From Gammaproteobacteria bacterium (GTDB lineage: Bacteria > Pseudomonadota > Gammaproteobacteria > Eutrophobiales > Eutrophobiaceae), in the NCBI GenBank assembly GCA_965261775.1, contig OZ253477.1:355311-419310 (forward strand): DNA of 64,000 nt. The letters run 5' to 3'. The notes beneath the pieces are model-generated. The model worked only from the letters and a program-made list of their open reading frames with translations, did not search any database and had not been told where the DNA came from. Position numbers and translations under genes: made by a program. Position 1 is the stretch's first letter, and every line of letters begins with the position of its first letter. Below are positions 1,444 to 8,005 of the stretch, in pieces.

Positions 1444-2285
1444 TCCCGTCATTCCCGTGGAAGCGGGAATCCAGTATACCCCCCGCTTGGCGTCATTCCC
1501 GTGGAAGCGGGAATCCAGTATACCCCCCGTTGGCGTCATTCCCGTGGAAGCGGGAATCCAGTATACCCCCTGCTTGGCGTCATTCCCGTGGAAGCGGGAA
1601 TCCAGTATACCCCCCGCTTGGCGTCATTCCCGTGGAAGCGGGAATCCAGTATACCCCCCGTTGGCGTCATTCCCGTGGAAGCGGGAATCCAGTATACCCC
1701 CTGCTTGGCGTCATTCCCGTGGAAGCGGGAATCCAGTATACCCCCTGCTTGGCGTCATTCCCGTGGAAGCGGGAATCCAGTATACCCCCTGCTTGGCGTC
1801 ATTCCCGCGGAAGCGGGAATCCAGTATACCCCCCGCTTGGCGTCATTCCCGTGGAAGCGGGAATCCAGTATACCCCCTGCTTGGCGTCATTCCCGTGGAA
1901 GCGGGAATCCAGTATACCCCCCGCTTGGCGTCATTCCCGTGGAAGCGGGAATCCAGTATACCCCCCGCTTGGCGTCATTCCCGCGGAAGCGGGAATCCAG
2001 TATACCCCCCGCTTGGCGTCATTCCCGTGGAAGCGGGAATCCAGTATACCCCCCGCTTGGCGTCATTCCCGTGGAAGCGGGAATCCAGTATACCCCCTTG
2101 GCGCTTGGCGTCATTCCCGTGGAAGCGGGAATCCAGTATACCCCCCGCTTGGCGTCATTCCCGTGGAAGCGGGAATCCAGTATACCCCCCCGCTTGGCGT
2201 CATTCCCGCGGAAGCGGGAATCCAGTATACCCCCCGCTTGGCGTTATTCCCGTGGAAGCGGGAATCCAGTATACCCCCGCTTCCG
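1444..2285. repeat. 44-bp tandem direct repeat array with 19 copies (43-46 bp units). Each unit contains the hairpin ATTCCCG-TGGAAG-CGGGAAT. It is not a CRISPR array.
   Basis: Unit is gtcattcccgtggaagcgggaatccagtataccccccgcttggc. I counted 19 occurrences of ggaatccagtatacc with a ~44.2-bp period. Only minor variants occur (cgtgg/cgcgg, length of the C-run, gctt/gtt). There are no variable spacers. Confidence 0.9.
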
Positions 2286-2665: not shown

Positions 2666-5600
2666 TCAGCTGGTTTGCCAGGCGGCAGCAATCACCGACT
2701 GTAGCTCATCCTGAACGTTTTGCGGAATCACACTATCAGCACCACTGGGCACATTGTAGGTCGCCATGGCAGTAACCAGTTGCTCAACCTGGTTGTTCAG
2801 CAATACCGAGGAGGACCCGACTTCAATGCGGTCCAACTGGTAATCAGCACCGCTGTACCAGTCGTCAATAGTCACCTGATCATCGGTGCCAGCGACAGTG
2901 ATCTGCAGATGGTTGTCACTGCGGCTGAACCAGAGGTCTTCGACCGAGACATCCTCAAACCGGGCGGTATCAACGCTGGTGGCATTGGTATCGTGGTTAT
3001 ACACCGTATCTGCACCATCGCCTGCACCGAACAGGTAGGTGTCACTACCGGCATCGCCGTGCAGGGAGTCGTTGTCCGCCCCTCCGCGCAGGGTATCATC
3101 GCCATCCTCTCCCCGGATAGTATCGTTCCCATCGCCACCGTTTATCACGTCATCGCTGGCATAACCGGTCAGGGTGTCGTTGCCATCGGTGCCTTGCAGC
3201 GCCATCGCTTTGATAGTATCCACATCCCAGCTCGTGCCATCGGCAAACTCAATAGCGTTCAGCGCATAACCGCCAGCGCCATCGTCATCAAAGTAGTTCC
3301 ATACCGTAATCACGTCACCGGCACTGCCAACGGTCAGACGCAAGTAGGTACTGCTACGGCTGACCGTGACATCGCTGACGGCAATACCTTCCAAAAAGCG
3401 CAGCACATCGTTGCGCCCGGCACCGGTATCGTGGTTGGTGATGAGGGTGTTGCCGTCGCCCGAACCGAACAGGTAGGTATCATTACCGGCACCGCCGTCA
3501 AGGATATCCCAACTGCCTGCACCACCGCGCAGGGTGTCATTGCCATTTTCCCCGGAGAGGGTGTCTTGACCATCACCGCCATCCAGTGTGTCGTTACCAT
3601 CACCGCCATTCAAGGTATCGTTATCGTCATCGCCATTCAACGTATCGTTACCGTCACCGCCATTCAAGGTATCGTTATCGTCACCGCCGGATAGTGTGTC
3701 GTCTCCGGCATCGCCGTAGAGCTTATCGTTGCCGCCCAGACCATTGATAACATCATCAGCGGTAGTGCCTTGGAGACTATCGTTACCTTCTGTAGCGTCG
3801 TCAGGGCCCGGAATCAACCCTTTAATGGTATCCACATCCCAGCTCGTGCCATCGGCAAATTCAATGGCGTTCAGCACAGAAGCGCCACGGCTGTGGAAGT
3901 GGTCCCGTACCGTAATCACCTCACCGGCACTGCCAACGGTCAGCAGCAAGCTGTTATCGCAGCGGCTGACCGTGACATCGCTGACGGCAATACCTTCCAA
4001 AAAGCGCAGCACATCGTTGCGACCCGCACTGGTGTCGTGGTTTTTGATGATGGTGTCGCCATCGCCCGAACCGAACAGGTAGGTATCGTTACCGGCACCG
4101 CCGTTGAGGGTATCCCCACTGCCTGCACCACCGCGCAGGGTGTCGTTACCAGCTTCTCCGTAAAGCTCGTCGTCGTTACCGGCGCCACCGTTTATCACGT
4201 CATCGCCATCTCCCCCATAGAGGAAGTCTCGACCATCACCGCCATCCAGGGTGTCATCGTCATTACCACCATAAAGCCGATCACAGTCATCACCGCCATC
4301 CAGGGTGTCATCGCCATCTCCCCCATAGAGGACATCAGTACCATCACCGCCATCCAGGGTGTCATCGCCATCTTCCCCATAGAGGAGATTCCAACTACCA
4401 GCACCGCCATCCAGGCGGTCATCGCCATCTCCCCCATAGAGGACATCAATACCATCACCGCCGTTTATCACGTCATCGCTGGCAAAACCTCTCAGGGTGT
4501 CATCGCCATCGGTGCCTTGCAGTACCATCGCTTTGATGGTATCCACATCCCAGCTAGTGCCATCGGCAAACTCAATAGCGTTCAGCGCCCGCGTAAAACT
4601 ACTGCTGGCACTATAGAGGTCGAAGAAGTAGTTCTGTACCGTAATCACCTCACCGGTACTGCCAACGGTCAGAAGCAAGTCGTCATAGTCACGGCGGGCC
4701 GTGACATCGCTGGCGGCAATGCCCGCCAAAAAGCGCAGCACATCGTTGCTCCCGGTATCGCAGTTGTGGATAGTGGTGTTACCATCGCCCGCACCGAAAA
4801 GGTAGGTGTCGTTACCGGCACCGCCGTTGAGATAATCCCCATTACCAGCACCACCGCGCAGGGTGTCGTTATCAGCCCCTCCGTAAAGCGTGTCCTTACC
4901 CGCGCCACCGTTCAGCACATCGTCTCCGGCATAGCCGTAGAGGACATCGTCACCGCCGAGGCCATTGATGACATCATTAGTTGTAGAGCCGTAGAGAATA
5001 TCGTTACCTTTTGTAGCGAAAGCGTCCGGAACAAACCCTTTAATGGTATCCACATCCCAACTCGTGCCATCGGCAAACTCGATAGTGTTCAGCGCATAAC
5101 CGCCAGCGCCATCCTGAAGGAAGTAGTTATTCACGGTAATCACTTCACCGGTACTGCCAATGGTCAGAAGCAAGTGGTTACGGTGGCCACGGCTAGCCGT
5201 GACATCGCTGACGGCAATGCCTTCCAGAAAGCGCAGCACATCGTTGCTCCCGGCAGCGGTATCGTGGTTGTTGATAGTAGTGTTGCCATCGCCCGCACCG
5301 AACAGGTAGGTATCATTACCGGCACCGCCGTTGAGATAGTCATTGGCACCAGCACCACCGCGCAAGGTATCGTCGCCATCTCCCCCATAGAGCGAGTCTC
5401 GACCGTCACCGCCATTCAAGGTATCGTTGTCGTCACCGCCATACAGGGTATCGTTATCGTCACCACCGGATAATGTGTCGTCTCCGGCATCGCCGTAGAG
5501 GACATCGTCACCGCCGAGGCCATTGATGACATCATTAGTTGTAGAGCCGTAGAGAGTATCGTTACCTTCTGTAGCGTCGTCAGCACCCGGAAGAAACCTT

Positions 5601-8005
5601 CTAACGGTATCCACATCCCAGCTCGTGCCATCGGCAAATTCAATGGCGTTCAGCACAGAAGCGCTATTGCTGTGGAAGTGGTCCCATACGGTAATCACCT
5701 CACCGGCACTGCCAACGGTCAGAATCAAGTCGTTATTGCTACGGCTGACCGCGACATCGTTGACGGCAATGCCTTCCAGAAAGCGCAACACATCGTTGCT
5801 CCCGGCACCGGTATCGCTGTTGATGATGATGGTGTGGCCATCGCCCGAACCGAACAGGTAGGTATCGTTACCGGTACCGCCGTCAAGGATATCCCAACTG
5901 CCTGCACCACCGCGCAAGGTGTCGTCGCCATCTCCCCCATAGAGCGAGTCTCGGCCATCACCGCCATTCAAGGTATCGTCGTCGTCACCGCCATACAACC
6001 CATCGTTATCGTCACCGCCATACAACCAATCGTTGCCGTCACCGCCATTCAACCTATCGTTACCGTCACCGCCATTCAAGGTATCGTTACCCTCGCCACC
6101 GTTTATCACGTCATCGCTGGCATGACCGGTTATGGTGTCATTGCCATCGGTGCCCAGCAGTACCCTCGCTTTGACGGTATCCACATCCCAACTCGTGCCA
6201 TCGGAAAATTCAATGGCGTTCAGTTCATTATTGGCGCGGAAGTAGTTCCGTACCGTAATCACGTCACCGGCACTGCCAACGGTCAAACGCAAGTTGTCAT
6301 CGCTACGGCGGGCCGTGACATCGCTGACGGCAATACCCGCCAAAAAGCTCAGCACATCGTTGCGCCCGGTAGCGGTATCGCTGTTGTTGATGGTGGTGTT
6401 GCCGTCGCCCGAACCGAACTGGTAGGTATCGTTACCGGCATCGCCTTGGAGGATATCCCCGCTACCCGCACCACCGCGCAAGGTGTCGTCGCCATCTCCC
6501 CCATAGATGCGGTCTTGACCATCACCGCCATCCAGGGTGTCGTTACCATCATCGCCATACAACCTATCGTTACCGTGAGCACCACGCAGGGTGTCGTTGC
6601 CGGCACCCCCGCGCAAGATGTCGTTGCCATATCCCCCACGGAGGGTGTCTTGATCATCACCGCCATTCAACGTATCGTTACCGAAGTTGCCGTACAAGGT
6701 ATCGTTACCGTCACCACCGGATAATGTGTCGTCACCGGCGTCACCCGACAAGGTGTCGTTACCGCCCAGGCCATTGATAACATCATCAGTTGTCGTGCCG
6801 TGGAGACTATCGTCACCTTCTGTAGCGTCGTCAGCACCCGGAATCAACCCTCTAACGGTATCCTCATCCCAGCTCGTGCCATCGGCAAATTCAATCGCGT
6901 TCAGCACAGAAGCGCGATTGCCGTGGAAGTAGTTATGTACCGTAATCACATCACTGGCACTGCCAACGGTCAGACGCAAGTCGTTACTGCTACGGCTGAC
7001 CGTGACATCGCTGACGGCAATGCCTTCCAGAAAGCGCAACACATCGTTGCGCCCGGTAGCGGTATCGCTGTTGTGGATAGTGGTGTTGCCATCGCCCGCA
7101 CCGAACAGGTAGGTATCGTTACCGGCACCGCCGTTGAGATAATCCCCATTACCAGCACCACCGCGCAAGGTGTCGTCGCCATCTCCCCCATAGATGCGGT
7201 CTTGACCATCACCGCCATCCAGGGTGTCGTTACCATCATCGCCATACAACCTATCGTTACCGTGAGCACCACGCAGGGTGTCGTTGCCGGCACCCCCGCG
7301 CAAGATGTCGTTGCCATATCCCCCACGGAGGGTGTCTTGATCATCACCGCCATTCAACGTATCGTTACCGAAGTTGCCGTACAAGGTATCGTTACCGTCA
7401 CCACCGGATAATGTGTCGTCACCGGCGTCACCCGACAAGGTGTCGTTACCGCCCAGGCCATTGATAACATCATCAGTTGTCGTGCCGTGGAGACTATCGT
7501 CACCTTCTGTAGCGTCGTCAGCACCCGGAATCAACCCTCTAACGGTATCCTCATCCCAGCTCGTGCCATCGGCAAATTCAATCGCGTTCAGCACAGAAGC
7601 GCGATTGCCGTGGAAGTAGTTATGTACCGTAATCACATCACTGGCACTGCCAACGGTCAGACGCAAGTCGTTACTGCTACGGCTGACCGTGACATCGCTG
7701 ACGGCAATGCCTTCCAGAAAGCGCAACACATCGTTGCGCCCGGTAGCGGTATCGCTGTTGTGGATAGTGGTGTTGCCATCGCCCGCACCGAACAGGTAGG
7801 TATCGTTACCGGCACCGCCGTTGAGATAATCCCCATTACCAGCACCACCGCGCAAGGTGTCGTCGCCATCTCCCCCATAGATGCGGTCTTGACCATCACC
7901 GCCATCCAGGGTGTCGTCACCACCGAGGCCCTCCAGGGTATCGTTTTCGGCAGTGCCGTTGAGAGTATCGTTACCTTCAGTCCCTGTTTGTTTAGAAGAA
8001 CTCAT
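2666..8005 (-). CDS. Large RTX Ca2+-binding repeat protein (FrpA/FrpC-like, 1779 aa), a probable type I secretion substrate
   Basis: Dozens of GGXGXDXL/IXG nonapeptides alternate with ~100-aa modules of the form [20 protein letters not shown]…VITV.NYF…[17 protein letters not shown]. There is no signal peptide. The C-terminal acidic tail …[15 protein letters not shown] looks like a T1SS signal. An AGGAG RBS lies 9 nt upstream of the ATG. Confidence 0.85.
6470..7909. repeat. Perfect internal tandem duplication in the RTX gene: 687-bp (229-codon) unit x ~2.1
   Basis: 6470..7222 is identical to 7157..7909. The ORF-track peptides at 6687..6932 and 7374..7619 are identical, and so are those at 6800.. 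and 7487…. Confidence 0.85.

Follow-up and report, generated by a model that had tools for sequence, protein, structure and literature searches.

The CGTC-1 family of repetitive extragenic palindromic (REP) sequences is defined by an unpaired 5' CGTC or TGTC tag (CCTC is tolerated), an 8-bp stem starting with AT, a loop of 4 nucleotides (nt), and a CCA tail, with complementary A-T and T-A at the first and second stem positions (PMC3733652). The family has been described mainly from Alphaproteobacteria, and the Neisseria repeat dRS3 is one of its members (Di Nocera, De Gregorio & Rocco 2013, PMC3733652). CGTC-1 copies are many, are interspersed through the genome, and occur chiefly as inverted dimers, head-to-tail CGTC dimers being termed "negligible" and grouped elements being rare except in Neisseria and Wolbachia (PMC3733652). 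No dedicated transposase is known for CGTC REPs (PMC3733652). Here, we describe a head-to-tail array of 19 such hairpins (1447 to 2285, + strand) in a 64,000-nt stretch of a Gammaproteobacteria bacterium assembly (GCA_965261775.1, contig OZ253477.1, positions 355,311 to 419,310). This entire 64-kb stretch is referred to as the window, and all coordinates are positions within it. With a probability of roughly 0.75, the array represents a locally amplified cluster of the CGTC-1/dRS3/NTS-type REP hairpin, arisen as a by-product of REP dynamics.

About half of the dRS3 copies in Neisseria correspond to a longer, oriented motif, NTS, with the consensus CGTCATTCCCGCGMAVGCGGGAATCYRG (Chenal et al. 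2025, PMC11893778). "Ssn-related motifs" (SRMs) flank small GIY-YIG genes (ssnA, cd10448) across many phyla, and the NTS-ssnA-NTS arrangement recalls an insertion sequence, REP families being suspected of being mobilized (PMC11893778). The SsnA nuclease binds the hairpin solely as single-stranded DNA of the tagged (CGTC) strand, with cleavage a few nucleotides to the 5' side of the hairpin. It is inactive on double-stranded DNA and on RNA, which it does not bind (PMC11893778). Binding depends critically on the C that follows the palindrome and cutting on the 3 nt that precede it, while the hairpin loop is dispensable for cleavage and its removal is tolerated (PMC11893778). NTS clusters adjoin membrane-protein genes and modulate the integration of transforming DNA via SsnA (PMC11893778). 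In the Neisseria elements named NIMEs, runs of dRS3 are split by RS elements of 19 to 214 bp, lie beside genes for surface or secreted proteins, and vary in copy number; silent C-terminal cassettes are located downstream of fhaB and mafB (PMC1797815).

Tandem Repeats Finder identifies the locus as a single array at 1447 to 2282 with a period of 44 bp, 19.0 copies, 96% matches, and 1% indels. When divided at each CGTC tag, the array resolves into head-to-tail units of 43 to 48 bp each, which start at positions 1447, 1491, 1534, 1578, 1622, 1665, 1709, 1753, 1797, 1841, 1885, 1929, 1973, 2017, 2061, 2109, 2153, 2198, and 2242. Every unit combines a forward CGTC-1-type REP hairpin of 28 nt with a spacer of 15 to 20 nt (modal sequence TATACCCCCCGCTTGG). 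The hairpin part, CGTCATTCCCGTGGAAGCGGGAATCCAG, is the same in 15 of the 19 units and consists of CGTC, ATTCCCG followed by T or C, the 4-nt loop GGAA, GCGGGAAT, and CCAG. The stem contains seven Watson-Crick pairs plus a G.T pair in 16 units; in units 9, 13, and 18, GCG replaces GTG, which restores the eighth (G-C) base pair. When folded as single-stranded DNA, the + strand adopts the expected hairpin as its minimum-energy structure (T variant, -6.9 kcal/mol; C variant, -9.0 kcal/mol), whereas the - strand favors an alternative pairing of the spacer with a hairpin arm.

Variation within the unit is greatest in the spacer and not in the hairpin, the 16-nt remainder of the unit occurring in six variants across the array. 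In addition, units 1 to 3 (1447 to 1577) and units 4 to 6 (1578 to 1708) form two 131-bp blocks that are 100% identical. A first-pass annotation of this DNA had described a highly homogeneous, recently expanded array of 19 copies of a 44-bp unit, each with a dRS3-like ATTCCC-N8-GGGAAT palindrome. The repeat analysis and the unit table agree with this description, and the 96% homogeneity indicates that the array is young. The same annotation regarded the 24 bp between palindromes as a constant segment, which is accurate for the conserved CGTC and CCAG tags and inaccurate for the remainder.

The key features of the CGTC-1 family are all present. The tag is CGTC in 18 units and CGTT in the last (unit 19), the AT-started 8-bp stem encloses a 4-nt loop, and the CCA-type unpaired tail is found in 19 of 19 units as CCAG. 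As in described CGTC-1 REPs, the elements are extragenic and associated with an inverted partner (see below). The ATTCCC-N8-GGGAAT palindrome occurs 19 times in the window, always on the + strand and inside the array, compared with 0 occurrences expected from 100 shuffles. The first copy, with stem ATTCCCGT/GCGGGAAT and loop GGAA, is located at 1451 to 1470 (+). The GTC before the palindrome and the C after it, the bases on which SsnA relies, are present in 18 of the 19 units, unit 19 having GTT. Comparison with the NTS consensus reveals agreement at 26 to 27 of 28 positions. The departures concern the first loop base, which is G in GGAA where NTS has A or C, and, in 16 units, a C12>T change that weakens the eighth pair. 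The resemblance to dRS3 noted in the first pass therefore extends beyond form, since the whole oriented motif is present with only one or two deviations. By these sequence features, the array hairpin belongs to the CGTC-1 REP family, including Neisseria dRS3, and not to a new kind of satellite. The element itself has already been described; new here is its unusually long local amplification. The locus differs from described CGTC-1 REPs in its 19-copy head-to-tail arrangement and in a host that is gammaproteobacterium-like rather than alphaproteobacterial.

A scan of a species-representative genome collection with the 24-mer TCATTCCCGYGGAAGCGGGAATCC retrieved at least 120 matching stretches from approximately 14 phylum-level groups, where about 0.008 matches are expected by chance. 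Among the matches listed are Alpha-, Beta-, Gamma-, and "Delta"-proteobacteria, Binatia, Planctomycetota, Chloroflexota, three candidate-phyla-radiation lineages, Gemmatimonadota, Acidobacteriota, Nitrospirota, Omnitrophota, Cloacimonadota, Bacteroidota, Actinomycetota, Kiritimatiellia, and others. Because the matched records are mostly metagenome bins, certain taxon labels may be wrong. Sequence conservation continues past the queried bases: among the matches listed, position -1 is G in 133 of 139 cases and position -2 is C or T in 126 of 139, while position +1 is A in 135 of 139 and position +2 is G in 101 of 139. This marks CGTC-hairpin-CCAG as the conserved element. An inverted partner is located within 120 nt of 67 of the 140 hairpins among these matches. 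The 24-mer hairpin is also present in eight IMG/VR contigs classed as viral (L122 to L129), one of which (L124) carries it as a 51-bp head-to-tail pair.

Forty distinct partners, picked by tag, tail, and spacing and not by pairing, were combined with the window unit into a set of 41 elements to assess covariation. In this set, 96% of the cells are paired, compared to 23 to 53% in slid controls. Two-sided changes are found in six of the eight stem pairs, as illustrated by ATTCCCGC, ACCCCCGC, ATCCCCGC, and GTCCCCGC stems with matching 3' arms, and the covariation score was reached by none of 500 shuffles. The stem is thus under structural selection, and its changes are compensatory.

The published link to a nuclease gene also recurs with this hairpin. 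In a Bryobacteraceae bin (L100, 1839 to 2225), a single-domain GIY-YIG open reading frame (ORF) of about 95 amino acids (aa) (Pfam PF01541, 2.2e-17) carries an identical hairpin on each side. A GIY-YIG ORF adjoins the identical hairpin in a betaproteobacterial bin as well (L094, 4874 to 5154), where the copy looks frameshifted. Both loci repeat the published association of motif and gene for exactly this loop variant, and L100 has the NTS-ssnA-NTS layout. The array shares its hairpin family with the SRM-Ssn pairs, from which it differs in that no ssn gene is present in the window.

The right end of the array offers a clue to the origin of the unit. The sequence after the last hairpin, TATACCCCCGCTTCCGCGAGGGGTGGCG (2270 to 2297), is a slightly damaged reverse CGTC REP of the ACCCCCGC type (ACCCCCGC-TTCC-GCG[A]GGGGT-GGCG). 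This degenerate inverted partner (2273 to 2297, - strand; read on the + strand as ACCCCCGC TTCC GCGAGGGGT GGCG) forms a hairpin of its own when folded as single-stranded DNA, and reverse partners of this stem type are frequent among the matches listed from other genomes. The unit spacers TATACCCCCCGCTT/GGCG (ACCCCCCGCTT/GGCG) equal this closing partner minus 11 nt (CCGCGAGGGGT). We infer that each 44-bp unit consists of a forward REP and the truncated, tail-side half of an inverted partner. Downstream, the region from 2319 to 2377, to which no strand is assigned, can be read as a mosaic of REP debris. It would comprise a truncated forward half-site, CGTCATTCC (2319 to 2327), and a reverse-type element, GTCCCCCGC...GCGGGGAC, split by a perfect 10-bp hairpin, CGCCTGTCTG-GCGG-CAGACAGGCG (2345 to 2368). 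The latter hairpin had been picked up in the first pass and is indeed there. Folding of 2242 to 2390 as single-stranded DNA gives a z-score of -5.6. Overall, positions 1447 to 2400 appear to be a mosaic cluster of REPs that has undergone amplification in its left part.

Under our interpretation of a locally amplified REP cluster, the founder would be a tail-to-tail REP dimer, composed of a forward ATTCCCG-type element and an inverted ACCCCCGC-type partner. The partner would have shed its loop and 3' arm, leaving a 44-bp piece that could multiply by replication slippage or by unequal exchange between neighboring copies, processes favored by hairpin-forming direct repeats, with a fuller partner copy left at the right end of the array. 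The 96% homogeneity and the exact duplication of a three-unit block point to slippage or unequal exchange, not transposition. Should an Ssn nuclease be encoded in this genome, the array would offer a natural substrate of 19 equally oriented binding sites on the + strand. Cuts would then be predicted to fall at intervals of about 44 nt, within the GCTTGG spacer, whenever replication, repair, or uptake renders the DNA single-stranded, and would release 44-nt pieces. Such cutting could create a hot spot of single-strand breaks and recombination that feeds further copy-number change. We regard a dedicated cellular function as unlikely and the array as most probably a by-product of REP dynamics.

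However, several observations weigh against this interpretation. The arrangement is atypical for the family, in which head-to-tail CGTC dimers are reported as negligible, and the window contains no CGTC hairpins outside 1447 to 2400. No Ssn-like GIY-YIG gene was found in the 64-kb window with a regular expression or by tblastn with three approximate GIY-YIG queries, and tblastn of the window with the L100 and L094 GIY-YIG proteins gave a best E value of 4.7. The strict NTS pattern, CGTCATTCCCGCGMAVGCGGGAATCYRG, has 0 exact matches in the window, as has the SRM search pattern HGTCWYN(0-2)YYVSBRHN(0-5)WNVSBRGN(0-2)RNCYNB. Both patterns fail because the first loop base is G where A, C, or T is demanded. 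Although these literal misses count as failures to match the published motifs, a miss at a loop position does not exclude the family's mode of action; by hand parsing, the widespread GCGGAAGC variant beside the GIY-YIG genes of L100 and L094 misses the SRM pattern likewise. In addition, the G.T at the eighth stem pair, present in 16 of the 19 units, is seen elsewhere in only 2 of 140 hairpins among the matches listed, which raises the possibility that a slightly impaired site was amplified. Finally, both the slippage origin and the reading of the spacer as a truncated partner derive from inspection of the sequence.

Tandem amplification of CGTC-1 hairpins is found at other loci too. In Methylotetracoccus oryzae (L023), a 189-bp unit is repeated six times at 5315 to 6438. 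Smaller arrays consist of two 30-bp copies (L054) or, on the viral contig L124, two copies of 51 bp. The 19 copies described here form the largest tandem array among the matches listed, which are a small sample. The M. oryzae unit is itself a composite of one CGTC-1 hairpin and a GTAG-tagged REP dimer, such that both REP super-families are co-amplified in a mosaic.

A different type of reiteration was observed in four loci of Binatia and other bins, where 21-bp tandem "half-site" arrays flank REP dimers (L014, 4002 to 4263; L026, 1142 to 1380; L079, 1999 to 2203; L097, 5133 to 5250). Here, only the tag and 5' arm are repeated, the 3' arm being absent. The half-site consists of GTCATTCCCGCG and about 9 nt and reaches 6.5 copies, and mirror-image arrays are present on both sides in three of the four loci. 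As far as the literature on these hairpins was searched, no description of such arrays was found. The half-site arrays may bear on how CGTC REPs multiply, and the full-site array in our window and the half-site arrays in other phyla, all head to tail, hint at local multiplication of these elements.

The genomic surroundings of the array bring in the Neisseria comparison. A large intact gene for an RTX/HCBP repeat protein (2666 to 8005, - strand; 1,779 aa; HemolysinCabind, 1e-182; HCBP_related, 8e-97) lies immediately upstream of the array with respect to the direction in which the gene is transcribed. An intrinsic-terminator-like hairpin, GGGACCGC-TTCAG-GCGGTCCC followed by T6, is located 25 nt past the RTX stop codon (2615 to 2641, - strand). 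Read on the minus strand, it has an 8-bp G+C-rich stem and a 5-nt loop, and it was not reported by a consensus terminator scan in two runs. Based on its sequence, this terminator would separate the RTX transcript from the array, which lies about 330 bp beyond it.

On the other side lies a decayed fragment of an RTX paralogue (850 to 1369, - strand), which is 73 to 84% identical to its paralogues by blastn. In this fragment, the last 80 nt of the gene with the stop codon (850 to 929) are fused to one repeat module (915 to 1369), and some 380 nt that are found between these parts in both intact paralogues are missing. The terminal piece is out of frame with a 120-aa ORF (960 to 1322, - strand) that matches HCBP_related at 7.5e-12. 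The array is non-coding and is located in a decayed spacer between the RTX gene terminator and an RTX pseudogene fragment. Three further RTX ORFs are present in the window at 44020 to 51020.

This setting resembles that of a Neisseria NIME in position and periodicity, yet the array is homogeneous, uniformly oriented, and outside Neisseria. In line with a proposal made for the dRS3 arrays of Neisseria, it could be suggested that the array acts as a NIME-like recombination module that raises recombination or variation at the adjacent exoprotein gene. Situated between an expressed RTX gene and a C-terminal RTX fragment that is promoterless, it could promote or limit exchange between RTX paralogues or with incoming DNA. 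In its full form, this proposal envisages a working module outside Neisseria, a one-strand battery of 19 Ssn sites whose nicking, in transient single-stranded DNA, would drive array expansion and also control recombination or deletion among the RTX paralogues. Nicking, slipping, and reannealing at 44-nt steps would then result in tandem expansion. The location is in line with this idea: the array is clustered beside a gene for a secreted protein, with an RTX C-terminal fragment on its other flank and RTX paralogues elsewhere in the window, much as NIMEs and transformation-modulating NTS clusters adjoin surface and membrane-protein genes and as silent C-terminal cassettes lie downstream of fhaB and mafB. 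Moreover, the 24 bp between its palindromes falls within the 19- to 214-bp range of RS elements. However, the array spacers all belong to one homogeneous 16-bp family, whereas NIMEs are mosaics of RS elements from more than 100 families. The host is not Neisseria, and neither a recombinase nor an Ssn gene was found in the window. The other RTX genes of the window (44020 to 51020) have no such array alongside. In addition, the RTX fragment is decayed (frame change, 380-bp deletion, 73 to 75% identity), which makes it unusable as a cassette. For all the appeal of the analogy, we therefore consider a NIME-like role unlikely, both as a modifier of the RTX locus and as a complete nuclease-driven module. 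If it were true, the half-site arrays (L014, L026, L079, and L097) could be footprints of nuclease-driven stuttering, and the module would be the first mechanism for the multiplication of CGTC REPs, which have no known transposase.

A second alternative, also raised in the first pass and rated here as quite improbable, is that the array is transcribed from the + strand as a series of RNA hairpins, serving as a REP-type RNA element or small RNA precursor that ends at 2456 to 2486. Transcription of REPs is frequent, and they can function as RNA elements (PMC3733652). A terminator-like hairpin with a T run does follow the array on the + strand (2456 to 2486; hairpin, 2456 to 2478), where it could end any + strand transcript crossing the array, and there is no + strand gene upstream. 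Likewise, the dominant T variant corresponds to a G.U wobble on the + strand and to an A.C mismatch on the - strand. The plus-strand terminator had been proposed before, and although the site exists, such sites occur here at chance frequency (2 found versus 2.1 expected from shuffles). Furthermore, there is no promoter-like site on the + strand, the RTX gene has its own terminator ahead of the array, RNA fold z-scores are weak (-0.4 for one unit and -1.0 for three), and the array has no Rfam match. Across the hairpin family, G.T-type mismatches are not favored over A.C (10 versus 16), leaving no strand-specific RNA signal, and SsnA does not bind RNA (PMC11893778).

The first-pass annotation also suggested that the array, inserted where an RTX gene is truncated, could be a mobile or recombinogenic satellite that deleted part of this gene, and stated that it begins exactly where the RTX remnant loses its 5' portion. 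The remnant itself is genuine, given its DNA homology (850 to 1369) and HCBP_related match, and it does adjoin the array at its 5' end; "exactly" holds only approximately, as a gap of about 78 bp separates the end of RTX homology from the array. Insertion of a mobile element, either miniature inverted-repeat transposable element-like or a transposing satellite, that truncated the RTX gene would fit this adjacency, and the insertion sequence-like NTS-ssnA-NTS arrangement and the suspected mobilization of REP families point the same way. Nevertheless, this scenario is very improbable. Neither terminal inverted repeats nor a target duplication flank the array, and searches of the window revealed no transposase. 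The remnant (about 73 to 75% identical to its paralogues, with its own internal 380-bp deletion and frame change) is old and far more diverged than the young array, and its truncation probably predates the array. Moreover, no second copy of the unit was found. A metagenome scan with the unit junction GGGAATCCAGTATACCCC gave one match, apparently in a coding region as judged by eye and considered a chance match, while a comparison of the array translation with 5.8 billion proteins returned solely the array's own third-frame ORF, a mis-called gene. The whole 44-bp unit is confined to this locus in all searches made, those of the window included.

Mis-assembly of a repeat as the source of the copy number or of the entire array is hardly credible, even though the source is a metagenome-type assembly, the unit is matched nowhere else, and part of the unit differences lie in a C homopolymer, because transitions and indels are ordered across units (the 131-bp three-unit block occurs twice and the GCG units are scattered), unlike what a collapsed or stuttered consensus would give, and because the 840-bp array is well within long-read length and its flanks hold related yet distinct REP debris.

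Other repeat classes share some traits with the array. Like CRISPRs, it is built from palindromic repeats that have a G+C-rich stem and recur at regular intervals. Its spacers, however, are only 15 to 20 nt long (typically 16) and essentially identical, occurring as six near-identical variants. The period is 44 bp as opposed to approximately 60 to 70 bp for CRISPRs, and the 64-kb window has no cas genes, such that the earlier view that this is not a CRISPR is correct. With GTAG REPs, BIMEs, and REPINs, which RAYT tyrosine transposases mobilize, the array has in common short extragenic palindromes with an unpaired tag, dimers, and clusters reiterated with flanking DNA. It is nevertheless not a member of the GTAG REP/REPIN-RAYT group, as its tag is CGTC and neither a RAYT (Y1 transposase) gene, an IS110 gene, nor any other transposase domain was detected in the large ORFs of the window.

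A coding function was rejected as well, since the 44-bp period is not a multiple of 3 and Pfam matches are only sub-threshold. The absence of stop codons from the unit is the sole reason why all three + frames are open. They remain open over 1426 to 2645, where public annotation calls a 337-aa "protein" (P0121). The sub-threshold matches of the array translations concern the Pfam families Tgi2PP and Top1B_N_bact, and REP peptides might contaminate these models or their seeds.

An apparent "satellite" can in this way be filed under a hairpin repeat with three earlier descriptions, as dRS3, CGTC-1 REP, and NTS/SRM. The partner enzyme of this repeat became known in 2025. NIME-type clustering has been said to be specific to Neisseria, and a comparable, homogeneous cluster is now found beside an RTX gene outside that genus, the host being an uncultured, gammaproteobacterium-like organism unrelated to it.

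The remainder of the window, apart from the further RTX genes, consists of common chromosomal genes, including those for DsbB, an M48 protease, RNase T, YjeF, Mnh/Mbh subunits, YhdP, RNase G, MlaA/C, DXS, chorismate synthase, TldD, RecJ, CopA/B, PurA, HisS, and others. A database protein from a single contig of 2,210,108 bp is 100% identical to the RNase G of the window, the RNase G of the next relative is 76% identical, and named matches are Gammaproteobacteria or "Proteobacteria" bins. No transposase, recombinase, or cas domains are present among the large ORFs of the window, and scans of the whole window for Rfam families and for tRNAs and tmRNAs found none. Positions 1 to 843 contain gene debris without a Pfam match. 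One ORF in this debris (193 to 711, - strand) starts with MKLKFDPSLEYQQDAISAVV, and another (108 to 1, - strand), which runs off the window start, begins with MTEPEKMNLESMDIAEEK. These two N-terminal fragments may be starts of type III restriction-modification Res and Mod proteins, which they resemble.

Two RTX genes of the window contain coding repeats of their own. The ORF at 2666 to 8005 (-) carries a perfect 687-bp (229-aa) tandem duplication of about 2.1 copies at 6468 to 7917. At an offset of 687, 763 consecutive positions are identical, indicating either a very recent in-frame duplication or an assembly issue. Near the 5' end of the RTX-like ORF at 47412 to 51020 (-), an 18-bp repeat is present in 7.9 copies with 99% identity (50820 to 50962). 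It encodes (SSGSTD)x8 near the N terminus and is likely a length-variable coding repeat.

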